From a virus: 33,061 nt of DNA. This document shows positions 3,074-32,984 of the stretch, in pieces. A program made the position numbers and the translations under genes. How positions within the stretch are numbered: position 1 is the first letter of the stretch; every line of letters starts with the position of its first letter. The notes beneath the pieces are model-generated. The model was given only the letters and a program-made list of their open reading frames with translations, had not been told where the DNA came from and made no database searches. The DNA lies in the IMG/VR virus record IMGVR_UViG_3300044821_000201, one strand, 5' to 3'.

Positions 3074-3526
3074 ATGTACTCGAGGACTAGGACCGCCCTT
3101 GACGGCTCGCCCAGGGAGCGCTCCATAAGGACGCAGGAGCTCGTCGACGGGACGCTGAACGACGTGGACAAGCTGATCCGCGGAGGGACCCCTGAGGCCC
3201 TCGACCTCCTTCTGTCCGAGATGAGCGTCGACAAGGTGCACCCGGAGGCCCTCGACATGGTCCTGGCCCTCGTCGAGGACATGGCCCTCCCGTCCCTCCA
3301 AGCCTTCAGGGACCGAGTGGACGGACGCGTCGCCAAGGTCGACGAGATCCTGAAGCCCATCAAGCTCCAGCGGTGCGACGGCTCTGTGGTGTCCCACGAC
3401 GTCCGGAAGGACGCCCGCGCCATCTACCGGGAGAAAGCGAAGATGTTCGGTGACGCCCTCCGAAAGGACGGAAACCTGGACCGGTTCTATAAGACGTCGG
3501 CGATGAAGAAGCACGCCCGTGGATGA
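3074..3526 (+). CDS. hypothetical protein
   Basis: GC3-rich plus-strand frame. ORF track extends to 2999 (TTG), but that upstream part contains the hairpin, so the internal ATG at 3074 is preferred. Start uncertain. Confidence 0.45.
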   Translation: MYSRTRTALDGSPRERSIRTQELVDGTLNDVDKLIRGGTPEALDLLLSEMSVDKVHPEALDMVLALVEDMALPSLQAFRDRVDGRVAKVDEILKPIKLQRCDGSVVSHDVRKDARAIYREKAKMFGDALRKDGNLDRFYKTSAMKKHARG

Positions 3527-3717
3527 CTCGGATGGGAAAAGAAGCGATCATAGCGAGCCTGATCTCGACGCCTGAGGGAAGAAGGAAGCTTGCGGAGTCC
3601 ATGGCGCAGCCCAGGACGAGGTGCATCGTCTGCGGTCAGCCGTACGGGGACTTCGTCGCCCACTGTGACTCCCAGGGGGATCAGGCGCACCTGGCGGCCT
3701 CCGTCATGGAGACCTGA
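3523..3717 (+). CDS. small Cys/His protein (CxxC...H.C) ending in VMET tag
   Basis: ATGA overlap with upstream stop; C-terminus ...LAASVMET matches the recurrent C-terminal motif. Confidence 0.5.
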   Translation: MTRMGKEAIIASLISTPEGRRKLAESMAQPRTRCIVCGQPYGDFVAHCDSQGDQAHLAASVMET

Positions 3718-3729
3718 TCCCAGAGACCT

Positions 3730-4137
3730 TTGTTCCCGCCTCGGGATGTGAGGGTTCTGTGCATAGACGACGAGCCGCTGATCCTCAAGGTGGTGGTCAG
3801 GATGATGCCAATGCACGTTGTCACGTGCTTCGTGGACTCGTGCGCGGCGATCGTTCACCTGCTGGGGAAGGACGCCCCAGTATATGACGCGATATTGTGC
3901 GACCTTCTGATGCCGAACTGCTCGGGAGTGGACGTCCATCGGGCCCTCGTCCTCGGCCGGCCCGATCTGGCTTCCAGAATAATCTTCTTCACCGGAATGG
4001 GGGCGATGCCCGGCGACGACGTCTTCCTGGACTCCGTCCCGAATCCCAGGCTCGGCAAGCCGTTCCTCCGCGAGGAGCTCCTGGACGCCATCGCGCTCGT
4101 TTCGAGTCTAACCTCGTTACAACTGGTCTCTAGATAA
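3730..4137 (+). CDS. stand-alone response-regulator receiver (CheY-like REC) domain protein
   Basis: Acidic pocket LCIDDEPL. Phospho-acceptor Asp in ILCDLLMP. Conserved T in FFTGM and K in LGKPF. Start is TTG at 3730 or GTG at 3748, uncertain. Confidence 0.7.
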   Translation: MFPPRDVRVLCIDDEPLILKVVVRMMPMHVVTCFVDSCAAIVHLLGKDAPVYDAILCDLLMPNCSGVDVHRALVLGRPDLASRIIFFTGMGAMPGDDVFLDSVPNPRLGKPFLREELLDAIALVSSLTSLQLVSR

Positions 4138-4761
4138 GACCAAAGCACAGGTTTCCAAAAACTCTTCATGGGCCATATCTGTTTTCATCCTATTGATTCT
4201 TGAATCAACCCATTGAAGATTATCGATCGTGTCGGGACCCCCACGAGAACGTGGTATTTTATGATCTACTGAAGCATTGGAACCAGGGATTAAAGCAATG
4301 CCCGTGTACGCGCACTTTCCTCCTCGGGCGTAAAACATCTTCTTCAGCGGCTCTCCGTTCCTTCTCGTCCCGGTGCTCTTGAAAGAGGATACCTTGCTGA
4401 ACCAATGATGTAAGCAGTACTTCCCGACAGTCGCTCTTCCGCTACAGTCATAGCAGAGGCCATTCTTTACCCTCTTCCGACTCGAGGCAAGGGATTCCTT
4501 TGATCGTCTCTCAAGACAGTCGGCGCATTGCGTCTTCCCGACCATGGCTGCCTTCGGACAAGATATGCACAGCCCCTTTTTCTTGTGCTCATCCCTGTTT
4601 CGCTGCATTCGCTCGGCGTTCGTCACGTGAACGACAACGGAAAAACGATCTATGATCGTTCGGACTTTGATTGTACGTTTAGTCTTCGGGGCCGACAGGT
4701 TTCGACTTGGCAAACAAGAGATTCTCCGACCGTGCAAGGGGAGCCCGTACCTCTTCATCAA
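4117..4761 (-). CDS. HNH homing endonuclease (Zn-finger N-terminal region + HNH motif)
   Basis: Motif ...ASVDHKIPRSRGGPDTIDNLQWVDSRINRMKTDMAHEEF. Low-GC island about 4140-5000. True start probably the internal ATG near 4608. Confidence 0.8.
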   Translation of the reverse strand: MMKRYGLPLHGRRISCLPSRNLSAPKTKRTIKVRTIIDRFSVVVHVTNAERMQRNRDEHKKKGLCISCPKAAMVGKTQCADCLERRSKESLASSRKRVKNGLCYDCSGRATVGKYCLHHWFSKVSSFKSTGTRRNGEPLKKMFYARGGKCAYTGIALIPGSNASVDHKIPRSRGGPDTIDNLQWVDSRINRMKTDMAHEEFLETCALVLSRDQL

Positions 4762-5016
4762 CAGGCATCGCTAACTGCGAACGACAACAACACCGTTCAC
4801 GCCCTCGCGGCGTGAACCACTGCTCCCGTAGATCGTCCTAGTATCGAGAGAGTGAAACCAGAACAGGGCTGGACTGTCGGAATTGTCTGATCTCCGATTA
4901 TCGAGAAAGTCACAGGCTTTGGGCGGGCGAGACCCCGCTAAAGCTTCTTAAGGCAGTCTGCGGCCAAGGGAAGCGTTATTTGAGCAGAATACGCACGTGA
5001 ACAAGGTGATCCCGGA

Positions 5017-5319
5017 ATGGTCAAGGACCCGCTTTCGATAGCGGCGGCTCCACCGAATGGCTTTCATTCCCCCAAACCCGGACCGGGTCCCCCAGATATG
5101 GGGTCTATGAAGATGGTCTCCGAGACGCAGGTGGAGCTCCTCCCCCAGTCGTTCTCGAAGATGTCCGACGCCAGGGACCCGTCTTTGATCCTTGTTGCCG
5201 TGCGTAGGATCCTGACCGAAGGACTCAAATACTACGAGCACGACGGGCAAAGCCTTTCCAAGAGGGTGGTCCGGGATGCCCTGGTCGCCCTCGGCGTCCC
5301 GGAGGAGAATCAGCCATGA
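5017..5319 (+). CDS. hypothetical protein
   Basis: AAGGTGA SD-like site 8 nt upstream of ATG; GC3-rich; ATGA overlap with next gene. Confidence 0.5.
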   Translation: MVKDPLSIAAAPPNGFHSPKPGPGPPDMGSMKMVSETQVELLPQSFSKMSDARDPSLILVAVRRILTEGLKYYEHDGQSLSKRVVRDALVALGVPEENQP

Positions 5320-31431: not shown

Positions 31432-31887
31432 ATGACGGAGATCAACAAGGCCCTCACTAAGCGCTACCTCGTCCTCCGGGACAAGCTCCCGGAGCTCGGC
31501 GAGGGCAAGACTGTCGTCACCGGCTACATGTCGGACGACCCGTCGGTCCGCCTCCGGGCGACGGACGACGGGGCTTGGGTCCAGATATGGCGGGCCGCCG
31601 ACTCCTCCCGGTACTTCGAGCTCCCCGTCCCCGTGTCCGAGGCCGAGTCCATGATGGACATGTGCCTCCGGAGGACGACGAGGACCTCCTGGGACGTCCG
31701 GCATGGCGGAAGAAGCTGGAGGGTGTCCGAGTACTCGGGGCGCCACGCCGGGCTCTGGACGGCCTTCCTCGAGCTCGGCTCCAGGTCGGACGGGTACGAG
31801 GAGCCCCCGTGGGTCGGGAAGAACGTAAGCGGCGATCGCCGCTTCACGGACGAAGGCCTCTCGAGGCTCCAGAGGCCGCCGTCGTGA
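31432..31887 (+). CDS. hypothetical protein (N-terminus MTEINKALTKRYLVL faintly CYTH-like; not asserted)
   Basis: ORF with protein-like composition. Confidence 0.45.
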   Translation: MTEINKALTKRYLVLRDKLPELGEGKTVVTGYMSDDPSVRLRATDDGAWVQIWRAADSSRYFELPVPVSEAESMMDMCLRRTTRTSWDVRHGGRSWRVSEYSGRHAGLWTAFLELGSRSDGYEEPPWVGKNVSGDRRFTDEGLSRLQRPPS

Positions 31888-32150
31888 AATGCGGCAACGC
31901 CGGGTGCCAGCGCACGGCCGACCGTCTCGTGTACTTGGCCGTGGCCGCGGAGGCGGCATATCCGGCCTGCGACGGTTGCGTCCGATATCTGAGCCCGGAA
32001 GAGCTCCCGGCAACGGTGGCCGTAGTCAAGGTCGTGTTTATGGAGGATGTCGACCGGGAGACCATGGATCTGACTCTCGCCGTCATGGACGAAATCGAGC
32101 TTGCGGCAGAGTGGAGGCCTGGGCTGAGAACGTACTCGGACCCGGGATGA
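31884..32150 (+). CDS. hypothetical Zn-ribbon-like protein (CGNAGC...CDGC)
   Basis: GTGA overlap with upstream stop; the preceding part of ORF 31575-32150 is junk. Confidence 0.4.
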   Translation: MKCGNAGCQRTADRLVYLAVAAEAAYPACDGCVRYLSPEELPATVAVVKVVFMEDVDRETMDLTLAVMDEIELAAEWRPGLRTYSDPG

Positions 32151-32434
32151 AGTGTCTCATCCTCCGGTGCGGGCGCGAGGCTGAGAGATGGTACAGGATC
32201 GACGAGCCGTCCGGCTCGTACATGACCGCCTCGTGCGCGCACTGTGAGAAGAAGACGCTCAAAAGCGTCGTCGGACCCCGGGGGAGCGTTGTCACGAGAA
32301 TCGGCCATGACGAGTTCCTCGTGACAGAGGTCATGGAGACGATGGAAGTGTTCAGGGCCAACATGGAGGTCGGCAACGGCCGCCTCCTCTACGTGCCTGA
32401 CCCCGTGCCCGACCCTGCCCCCGAAACCATCTAG
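32147..32434 (+). CDS. hypothetical protein with internal EVMETMEV motif
   Basis: ATGA overlap; the N-terminal part of ORF 31889-32434 is Arg/Gly junk. Confidence 0.45.
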   Translation: MKCLILRCGREAERWYRIDEPSGSYMTASCAHCEKKTLKSVVGPRGSVVTRIGHDEFLVTEVMETMEVFRANMEVGNGRLLYVPDPVPDPAPETI

Positions 32435-32503
32435 ATGTGGCTCAGTCTGGTAGAGCGCCGCGTTCGGACGCGAAAGTCGCAGGCTCAAACCATGCCACCT
32501 AGA
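32431..32503 (+). other. tRNA-like element (degenerate tRNA or tRNA remnant)
   Basis: Canonical D-arm tgGCTCagtctggtaGAGCg and acceptor ctagatg/cacctag (6 of 7 bp). The anticodon loop is only 6 nt (uucgga). T-loop CTCAAAC lacks TTC. Confidence 0.25.
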
Positions 32504-32516
32504 CCGTTTTAAGTCA

Positions 32517-32984
32517 TCATGACATCATGACATCGTGGACGACAATGTGATCATGCACGTTCATGCAGAACTGCATGGCCTCGACTTGACGAAAGAGCCA
32601 GGAGTGCTGCGGGGCCAACAGCGTCACGAGACGCTCTCTCACGAGGGAGAGCTTTCTCCCCACCGAGGAGCCGGAGTTGTTGCGCGGGAGGATGACCTCC
32701 TTCATCTCCCAAGACTTGGGGACCTGCTTTCGGTCGTCGAACCTCTCCGGCTCGTCCGGGCGGGCGAGGGCCCCGTAGGCCCAGCGCGCTGTGACGGACC
32801 GCTTTGTCACCTTCAGGTCGCCGAACTCGACGGCGTGCACCTCGTCCCTCACGAATCCGTCCGAGCCGACGACCGTGGCCAGGAGCACGAGCTTTCGGTC
32901 CCAGGACGCCCCCGGCTGGCCCGCCAGGGGCCCGCGGATCTCGATGGAGTACGGAATGTCCTCTAGCTTCGTAAGCCTCTTCAC
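32517..32984 (-). CDS. hypothetical protein ending ...VVHDVMMS
   Basis: Minus-strand ORF; the overlapping plus and minus Arg/Pro-rich frames are rejected. Confidence 0.45.
   Translation of the reverse strand: MKRLTKLEDIPYSIEIRGPLAGQPGASWDRKLVLLATVVGSDGFVRDEVHAVEFGDLKVTKRSVTARWAYGALARPDEPERFDDRKQVPKSWEMKEVILPRNNSGSSVGRKLSLVRERLVTLLAPQHSWLFRQVEAMQFCMNVHDHIVVHDVMMS

Follow-up and report, generated by a model that had tools for sequence, protein, structure and literature searches.

Encapsulin cargo-loading peptides are short sequences placed at the extreme C-terminus of unrelated proteins, often behind a linker, and attach cargo to the inside of a protein shell related to phage capsids. These peptides are motifs of the Gly-Ser-Leu type and usually mark one to four cargos that are encoded beside the shell gene. 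The KKxx, PTS1 (-SKL) and HbYX signals hold their key residues at a fixed distance from the carboxylate, tolerate variation in the last one or two residues and occur on unrelated carriers. The INT domain of vPARP, a folded domain of about 160 residues, steers cargo into the shell of the major vault protein (MVP). Encapsulation peptides of bacterial microcompartments (BMC), such as EutC1-19, PduD and PduP, feature alternating polar and hydrophobic pairs and are amphipathic helices (PMC11463388). The experimentally validated EutC1-19 signal, MDQKQIEEIVRSVMASMGQ, contains the sequence IVRSVMAS (PMC3299773). SspB docks ClpX via the tail RGGRPALRVVK-COOH (PMC3983244), and the capsid targeting sequence of T4 and the head propeptides of giant phages (SPN3US) are short shared peptides that load unrelated proteins into the prohead (PMC3012670). 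Here we describe a short C-terminal tail, V-M-x-x-COOH, which recurs on unrelated proteins encoded by the IMG/VR virus record IMGVR_UViG_3300044821_000201. This 33,061-bp stretch, hereafter called the window, is an entire phage-like JGI metagenome contig with a GC content of ~0.62. We consider, with a probability of roughly 0.65, that the tail is a functional C-terminal tag, read by a receptor, on many unrelated soluble proteins of huge phages.

The gene set of the window comprises 57 genes, selected by a codon-usage score trained on the clearest long open reading frames (ORFs). Gene starts are approximate; C-termini are set by stop codons and hence do not depend on them. Val-Met occupies positions -4 and -3, counted from the C-terminal residue, in 8 of the 57 called proteins (hereafter tagged proteins), and a ninth protein has Val-Leu at the same place. 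As VM occurs 22 times at about 8,100 other dipeptide positions, 0.15 occurrences are expected (P = 7e-12, or P = 2e-8 after correction for 400 dipeptides at 6 positions). In the six frames of the window, VMxx precedes 10 of 1,462 stop codons, and eight of the ten belong to the called V-M genes. A six-frame control gave a similar picture, VMxx ending 30 of 1,143 ORFs in the clade of the window versus 3 of 3,295 in 538 kb of other MVP-bearing loci (Fisher P = 4e-15). The window counts reject a chance origin of the shared tail, which is far more frequent than the occurrence of VM elsewhere would predict.

All nine ORFs listed in a preliminary description of the window, made from the sequence alone, end in the peptides reported there (Table 1), and the EVMETMEV sequence of ORF 32147-32434 is internal, as described. 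The motif proposed in that description, [EH]VM[ET][ST], has to be redrawn, the true core being V-M-x-x-COOH accompanied by hydrophobic residues at -8/-7. The internal match in ORF 32147-32434 may be due to chance, or may mark a former C-terminus that was extended by loss of a stop codon. The two VMxx stops outside the called genes end a 13-codon ORF (at 32509) and a remnant (at 27221). This remnant aligns to the 3' end of an intact 64-aa gene, L028:5139-5333, of a near-identical strain, and the N-terminal part of window ORF 27034-27213 matches L028:4815-5096. Judging from these alignments, the segment 27034-27221 joins, out of frame, two genes that L028 keeps apart, and its VMxx stop (27221) is a relic. 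More broadly, the stretch from 22 to 31 kb of the window is mosaic among the strains.

Tagged window proteins do not match Pfam or PHROGs. The ORFs had been described as unrelated, which does not hold for all of them. Three pairs (3523/25451, 22999/23337 and 25174/32517) share 28 to 49 residues of C-terminal similarity, and it is these pairs that reduce the nine ORFs to about six independent families. For instance, 25451-25756, which is followed by a tRNA-Ile gene, is a paralog of 3523-3717, and 25174-25449 is weakly similar to 32517-32984 across 49 C-terminal residues. The 32517-32984 gene is identical in L028, L027 and L031, and the 23337-23711 gene has counterparts in a tandem array of five genes of the same type (L051:10705-12629). 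Further orthologs come from diverged relatives. Those of 3523-3717, L007:13903-14106 (...VVLEVMET) and L025:912-1106 (...LAASVMET), are 45% identical and still carry the tail, with synonymous changes, and the ortholog of 15514-15885, L025:14403-14741, ends in ...TAMEVMGT, with GAA GTA changed to GAG GTG. The ortholog of 21889-22224, L025:20997-21323, ends in ...AVREVMVT; six of the eight tail residues are changed, and just V-M is kept.

A DNA search of INPHARED (a phage GenBank collection) with the window gave no match. Relatives were found via three genes, encoding the MVP homolog, a 591-aa protein (11142-12917) and a 235-aa protein (23708-24415), and were sampled as pieces of ±10 kb, to which all frequencies reported below refer. 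The tail is present in the independent assemblies L007, L025/L051, L028/L027/L029, L211 and L213 (Table 1). In the pooled loci of this clade, 49 of 226 distinct proteins (22%) carry [LVI]-[AV]-x-[EDS]-V-M-x-[ST]-COOH. Tagged proteins are soluble, have a median length of 118 aa, and contain CxxC more often than untagged ones (41% versus 24%). BLAST clustering yielded 117 families, 21 of which are tagged, with tagged proteins ranging from 48 to 265 aa in length. In the five tagged families with several members V-M is found in every member, while the flanks vary (e.g., ...IRLIKHVMES versus ...ARAVREVMVT).

An alignment of 36 distinct tails revealed Val at -4 in all of them, and Met (34) or Leu (2) at -3. 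Position -8 is mostly Leu (17), Val (7) or Ile (5), -7 is Ala (24) or Val (10), and -5 is Glu (15), Ser (6) or Asp (6). At -2 Glu is found in 17 tails and the residue is otherwise variable; Ser (14), Thr (11), Ala (4) and Gly (3) occur at -1. The hydrophobic pairs -8/-7 and -4/-3 alternate with polar pairs, and their i, i+1, i+4, i+5 spacing corresponds to one face of an amphipathic helix. On this pattern, the V-M tail may adopt a helical conformation.

Conservation of the tail had been attributed to the protein and not to a DNA repeat, and codon usage bears this out. When 27 distinct tagged genes of the window and of related loci were compared, Val at -4 was encoded by GTC in 15, GTG in 9, GTA in 2 and GTT in 1, matching genome-wide usage, and the codon at -5 varies extensively (GAG, GAA, GAC, GAT, CAC, TCC, CGG, ACG, CTG). 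All three stop codons occur, and are used as in untagged genes. No conserved DNA is found downstream, and the next feature there is, for several of the genes, a convergent gene or a tRNA. GTNATG alone is invariant, in strict register with the stop codon of the gene itself, and orthologs of tagged genes keep V-M despite synonymous differences (e.g., GAA GTA ATG versus GAG GTG ATG). Codon variability, the variable downstream context and the register with the gene's own stop thus indicate selection on the protein rather than on DNA. A nucleotide signal at gene 3' ends that reads by chance as V-M-x-x, be it a ribosome-binding or reinitiation site, a promoter, a terminator or a recombination linker, would account for the ATG located exactly 6 nt before the stop, for the Shine-Dalgarno-like GAGGT and for the overlap of many tagged genes with the start of the following gene. 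However, the spacing is fixed to the gene's own stop and variable to the next start, the third base of the Val codon follows genome-wide usage, and amino acid substitutions are conservative across unrelated codons, all of which makes such a signal scarcely credible. DNA-level motifs of these kinds, including Shine-Dalgarno sequences and TATAAT-like promoters in the AT-rich tail variant described below, were rejected on the grounds of codon variability, downstream context and spacing to the gene's own stop.

Comparisons with untagged homologs indicate how the tail is carried. The 194-aa protein encoded at 30580-31164 has a homolog (P0124, 48% identity) that ends in ...LIEVMSS, and a distant homolog (P0125, 30% identity) that stops ahead of the 24-residue extension bearing the tail. 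A word-based search with the 194-aa protein returned the protein itself alone, and an IMG/VR scan returned nothing. Similarly, the tagged protein L028:140-502 (...LAFLVMKT) has a homolog in L056 (8241-8453) that ends directly after the shared zinc ribbon and has no extension. In the sister lineage L167, a SLOG protein features a linker plus tail of ~45 residues in all, which is missing from five orthologs (157-166 aa) in other phages. By these alignments, the tail is a module appended to unrelated proteins, often as a short extension. The preliminary view of a tag-like tail on unrelated proteins is strengthened accordingly, both by the lack of the extension in distant homologs and by the SLOG, AAA+ and DUF3150 carriers of a sister lineage.

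The same comparisons bear on the possibility that there is no common receptor, the tagged ORFs being diverged paralogs of one or a few families in which the tail is a conserved terminal helix serving folding or self-association. The three window pairs sharing 28-49 C-terminal residues, the frequent tandem arrangement of tagged genes, and the large paralog families known in huge phages are in line with this possibility. Yet tagged proteins of 48-265 aa fall into 21 separate BLAST families, the carriers of sister tails have different Pfam folds, homologs outside the clade have no extension, and what is conserved is just an octapeptide held in strict register with the stop. We consider this explanation very improbable. 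A single paralogous family, the outcome that the preliminary description had named as fatal to its proposal, is rejected by the clustering and by the Pfam folds.

Tails of different sequence were identified in other huge-phage loci. Unbiased scans for residue pairs enriched at fixed C-terminal positions, along with a clique test on the last five residues, were run on about 195 loci. The scans flagged solely the clade of the window (M dialect), L052 and L056 (H dialect), L167 (R dialect), and L203 and L207 (K dialect), and nothing at internal control positions. The 235-aa marker proteins of L052 and L056 (59% and 53% identical to that of the window) are nested among M lineages, and the H tail is built like the M tail, except that His takes the place of Met, and Leu that of Ser/Thr. 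R tails are carried by a SLOG/YpsA protein, a classic AAA+ ATPase, a DUF3150 protein and two unknown proteins. Codons vary in the R and K tails (Arg AGG, CGA or CGC; Tyr/Phe TAT or TTT; Asn AAC or AAT), which points to protein-level selection in these dialects too; moreover, spacing is fixed to the gene's own stop and variable to the next start. Weaker M-like tails occur in L054/L057, L212 and L137. In the sampled loci, no protein was found whose orthologs carry an M tail in one lineage and an H tail in another. A 296-aa protein present in L212 (13546-14436), L054 (16021-16911) and L052 (17935-18825) is 88% identical across lineages in which the 235-aa marker is ~50-59% identical; this unusually conserved protein may be a structural protein.

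The preliminary description had tied the tail to the MVP homolog at 363-2990, and this tie is not supported. A cargo-loading peptide specific for a vault-like shell of MVP would be compatible with the tail architecture, which is that of shell encapsulation peptides (PMC11463388). In addition, MVP is present in every M-dialect relative sampled at its locus (L007 and L025), and tagged genes directly flank it (e.g., L007:12634-13230 and window 3523-3717). The R and K dialects also turned up in MVP neighbourhoods, but these loci were found through MVP, so that their co-occurrence with it is an ascertainment effect and carries no weight. IMG/VR contains 239 MVP homologs, on contigs of up to 480 kb, and homologs of 39-55% identity are widespread in huge-phage contigs (loci L032-L050 and L136-L210). 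About 100 MVP loci, including the next-closest ones (46-55% identity), show no enrichment of the tail within ±10 kb. In the clade of the window, the density of tagged genes 20-45 kb away from MVP is equal or higher. MVP is also chromosomal in bacteria, homologs being found in genomes of several phyla, among them metagenome-assembled genomes and the Saprospira grandis chromosome. A 274-kb contig with the H dialect is not among the best 80 MVP matches, which is weak evidence, as the genome may exceed the contig. No MVP segment covaries with dialect. The segment ...LEVMELSTG... ('EVMEL') is the same in all dialects, and the idea that the tail mimics this internal MVP segment was rejected for this reason. 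Like the tail envisaged here, the INT domain of vPARP steers cargo into an MVP shell, but the tagged proteins (48-265 aa) have an 8-residue tail, with neither a shared domain nor a Pfam match. Taken together, a peptide dedicated to an MVP shell is unlikely.

Addressing of proteins to an AAA+ protease is a further explanation. The tail would then be a degradation or adaptor tag for host ClpX or Lon, or for a phage enzyme, and its carriers would be substrates of timed turnover or adaptors for host targets. ClpX-family machines are indeed addressed by position-locked C-terminal peptides, and these (ssrA, the SspB XB tail) resemble the phage tail in their extreme C-terminal location, their flexible linker and the single machine that serves as a hub. 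The L167 tails (...KPGTKRIVEL, ...FKRVVEL) are similar to the SspB tail, including a Gly/Pro/Lys-rich linker, the KR[IV]VEL dialect resembling the RVV core of the XB tail. The phage has a tmRNA of its own, with the tag ANDNNTVHALAA (...ALAA), and small accessory ORFans such as the tagged proteins are often produced early. In contrast, the acidic tail of the window, with its Ser/Thr end, is unlike known ClpX, Lon and Prc degrons. The non-polar last three residues of ssrA-type tags (LAA-like) are replaced by M-x-[ST] with mostly Glu at -2. The likeness to SspB is limited to one sister dialect, and bacteria use one adaptor or one co-translational tag, whereas the phage has dozens of genome-encoded tails. 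No protease gene was seen nearby, and a degron on ~20% of the genes is hard to explain. Docking to a protease or adaptor, ranked next after sorting or loading, is in our judgement rather unlikely.

The outcome that we judge likeliest, though somewhat short of even odds, is sorting or loading into an assembly built by the phage, either the capsid lumen, with ejection along with the DNA, or another shell, possibly of MVP. Here the known loading peptides provide both parallels and differences. Like an encapsulin peptide, the tail occupies the extreme C-terminus of otherwise unrelated proteins. Its logo, [LVI][AV]x[EDS]VMx[ST], is not of the Gly-Ser-Leu type of encapsulins, and it marks ~20% of the phage genes, scattered over tens of kb. 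No Pfam match to encapsulin (HK97-fold, Linocin_M18), and no BMC-H or BMC-P shell gene, was found in the scanned window proteins or in the annotations of L023-L055, L211 and L212. Of the BMC peptides, the IVRSVMAS sequence of EutC fits the window motif [LVI]-[AV]-x-[EDS]-V-M-x-[ST], and the -8/-7 and -4/-3 pairs of the tail would fit an amphipathic helix of alternating pairs. Moreover, homologs without the extension (P0125, L056:8241-8453 and the SLOG orthologs) recall BMC peptides, which are missing outside the compartment. BMC peptides, however, are mostly N-terminal, are out of register with the terminus and are weakly conserved, while V-M is invariant at -4/-3 in the tail. We read the match to BMC peptides as a resemblance, not as membership. 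T4-type peptides are N-terminal and are cut by the prohead protease at L/I-x-E or A-x-E, whereas the phage motif sits at the C-terminus, at a fixed distance from the stop codon. The hydrophobic C-terminal residue of canonical PDZ ligands is absent from the M dialect and present in the H, R and K dialects (L/I/V/M). KKxx, PTS1 and HbYX share with the phage tail the fixed spacing of key residues from the carboxylate, the tolerant last one or two residues and the unrelated carriers, but they serve membrane traffic in eukaryotes or the gates of proteasomes and do not resemble the tail in sequence.

If the tail is a receptor-read tag, it would dock into a pocket of one common receptor, which would recognise the free carboxylate as well as V(-4)/M(-3) and L/A(-8/-7). 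Docking would commit about 20% of the accessory proteome to a common fate, and co-evolution of receptor and tail would generate the lineage dialects VMx[ST], [IV]HxL, KR[IV]VEL and K[YF]N[ILVM]. Our proposal in its full form, which we put forward tentatively, is a proteome-wide 'zip-code' of huge phages in which a phage-encoded receptor reads a tail of 4-8 residues plus the carboxylate and sorts a fifth of the accessory proteins into a particle or compartment built by the phage, with the dialects VMxS, IHxL, KRIVEL and KYNI. Another hub acting as the common receptor is possible as well, and takes a share of the probability.

Several observations weigh against this proposal. The receptor was not found in the sampled loci, where no shell, PDZ, TPR or protease gene was seen either; the only gene family restricted to tag-bearing loci is that of a 151-aa CYTH-like protein common to M and K loci, too thin a basis to single it out. 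The frequencies stem from sampled pieces of the related genomes. The surroundings of tagged genes are small accessory genes, tRNAs and genes related to translation, not structural modules, contrary to the simplest expectation for capsid loading, and HU-like proteins and sigma factors carry no tail. The R and K dialects, moreover, could have arisen independently and not belong to one system. Finally, structure prediction lends no support, as the AlphaFold2 (AF2) model of the 194-aa tagged protein, based on an alignment of three sequences, was unusable (predicted local distance difference test score, pLDDT, 34).

Table 1. Tagged ORFs and other features of the window, with related loci and tail dialects
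Feature	Position or locus	Strand	Remarks
MVP homolog, 875 aa	363-2990	+	Pfam MVP_shoulder (6e-24) and Vault_3; context only, membership in a tag system not supported
Tagged ORF, 64 aa	3523-3717	+	CxxC...HC zinc-ribbon-like; tail LAASVMET at 3691-3714
Tagged ORF, 123 aa	15514-15885	+	Tail TAMEVMET at 15859-15882
Tagged ORF, 111 aa	21889-22224	+	Tail LIKHVMES at 22198-22221; convergent gene next
Tagged ORF, 113 aa	22999-23340	+	Tail VFLEVMES at 23314-23337; tandem paralog of 23337-23711
Tagged ORF, 124 aa	23337-23711	+	Start given earlier as 23457; tail LALEVLES at 23685-23708, Leu replacing Met; convergent gene next
Tagged ORF, 91 aa	25174-25449	+	Tail LAHDVMNG at 25423-25446
Tagged ORF	25451-25756	+	Start uncertain (25451, 25472 or 25526); tail LALEVMTS at 25730-25753
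Remnant of tagged-gene 3' end	27169-27221	+	...CVPCIARDVMNR, ARDVMNR; out of frame with ORF 27034-27213
Tagged ORF, 194 aa	30580-31164	+	Tail DVVEVMEA at 31138-31161, end of a ~24-residue C-terminal extension
Internal full match to tail motif	32318-32341	+	LVTEVMET within ORF 32147-32434 (EVMETMEV); 31 codons before the stop
Tagged ORF, 155 aa	32517-32984	-	Tail VVHDVMMS at 32520-32543
tmRNA/tRNA regions	4688-5055; 17022-21524; 25788-29238; 32431-32503
Relative, GenBank JACCDR01	L007		JACCDR010361005.1 (88 kb); MVP 66% identical; syntenic with window 363-11025; 4 tagged genes
Relative, 160-kb JGI contig	L025/L051		Ga0672836_0000003; 235-aa marker 80% identical (P0005); 5/37 and 11/32 tagged, including a tandem array of five
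Relative, 63-kb JGI contig	L028		Ga0395715_000007; near-identical mosaic strain, also in two Logan assemblies; ~10 kb beyond window end; 10/41 tagged
Relative, root metagenome	L211		rootH1_10029995 (96 kb); 235-aa marker 56% identical; 9-10/31 tagged
Relative	L213		235-aa marker 66% identical; 3/5 tagged
ThiF/Prok-JAB cluster genes	L028:813-1214 and 3405-4058; L051:1198-1773 and 2987-3388; L211:217-789
H dialect, Φ-Φ-x-x-[IV]-H-x-L	L052, L056		Five proteins each: QEIHDL, HSIHRL, RQIHSL, DEIHGL, REVHEL; 274-kb contig IMGVR_UViG_3300037851_001277
R dialect, [KT]-R-[IV]-V-E-[LVS]	L167		5/31 proteins, after Gly/Pro/Lys-rich linkers; 209-kb contig IMGVR_UViG_3300034196_000067
K dialect, K-[YF]-N-[ILVM]	L207, L203		Nine proteins (L207) and six (L203); GC 0.25-0.27; one carrier an ankyrin-repeat protein; contig IMGVR_UViG_3300029998_000037

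The window also encodes PTH2, RRM, HD and DnaJ-domain proteins, a response regulator, a sigma factor, an HU-like protein, a phosphatase-like protein and several HNH proteins. In addition to the tmRNA, it carries 37-38 tRNAs in two arrays. A Thr-Gly-Gly-Cys tRNA block is present twice (19001-19359 and 28844-29238), and the tRNA at 32431-32503, detected by Rfam alone, overlaps the stop codon of ORF 32147-32434. ORFs of lower GC content (17678-18433 and 25830-26684, both on the minus strand, 4117-4761, also minus, 20829-21347 and 27313-27930) are scattered between the tmRNA and tRNA arrays, a pattern suggestive of mobile insertions. Orthologs of 20829-21347 in relatives are Pfam HNH-positive, and the remaining lower-GC ORFs look by eye like HNH or zinc-finger endonucleases. 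ORF 16184-16552 encodes a Cys-rich protein of 122 aa with a lipoprotein-like N-terminus (MNRFLLLAFLLVLPCC...) and repeated C...DG...C units.

The 151-aa protein mentioned above (window 31432-31887) is CYTH-like by eye, has no Pfam match, and is 100% identical in four assemblies with differing flanks. Its sole other homolog among ~190 loci is L207:18528-19001, in a K-dialect locus. The 235-aa Cys/His-rich protein (minus strand) is conserved in at least 128 huge-phage contigs of up to 478 kb and belongs to no Pfam family. Its confident AF2 model (pLDDT 85) is all-beta, and Foldseek retrieved no matching PDB structure (E > 0.1, TM < 0.2). This protein is a useful marker gene of the phage group. 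In relatives, genes for ThiF (E1-like adenylating; a solid match) and a Prok-JAB metalloprotease (borderline) form a conserved cluster with two tagged genes, and this cluster is absent from the window. Enzymes of the ThiF and JAB classes act on protein C-termini, so that the two are possible candidates for processing of the tail.

Full-text literature searches for a shared phage C-terminal tag, or for phage MVP in this context, returned nothing relevant. The kind of element, a terminal peptide with a common receptor, is known; its proteome-wide use in a phage, its C-terminal register and its lineage dialects are, to our knowledge, new. Even as degrons, C-terminal recognition tails that a virus encodes and that co-evolve as a family would be a novelty. 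If the tail is a sorting or docking signal, bacteriophages would have their first described targeting code on the scale of a proteome. The signal would split dozens of huge-phage ORFans of unknown function into tagged and untagged classes, and would provide a handle for finding the receptor and hence the compartment, particle or protease concerned, as well as short, portable and orthogonal tags for engineering. The role of the many small accessory proteins of huge phages, a long-standing problem, would become testable for a whole group of them.

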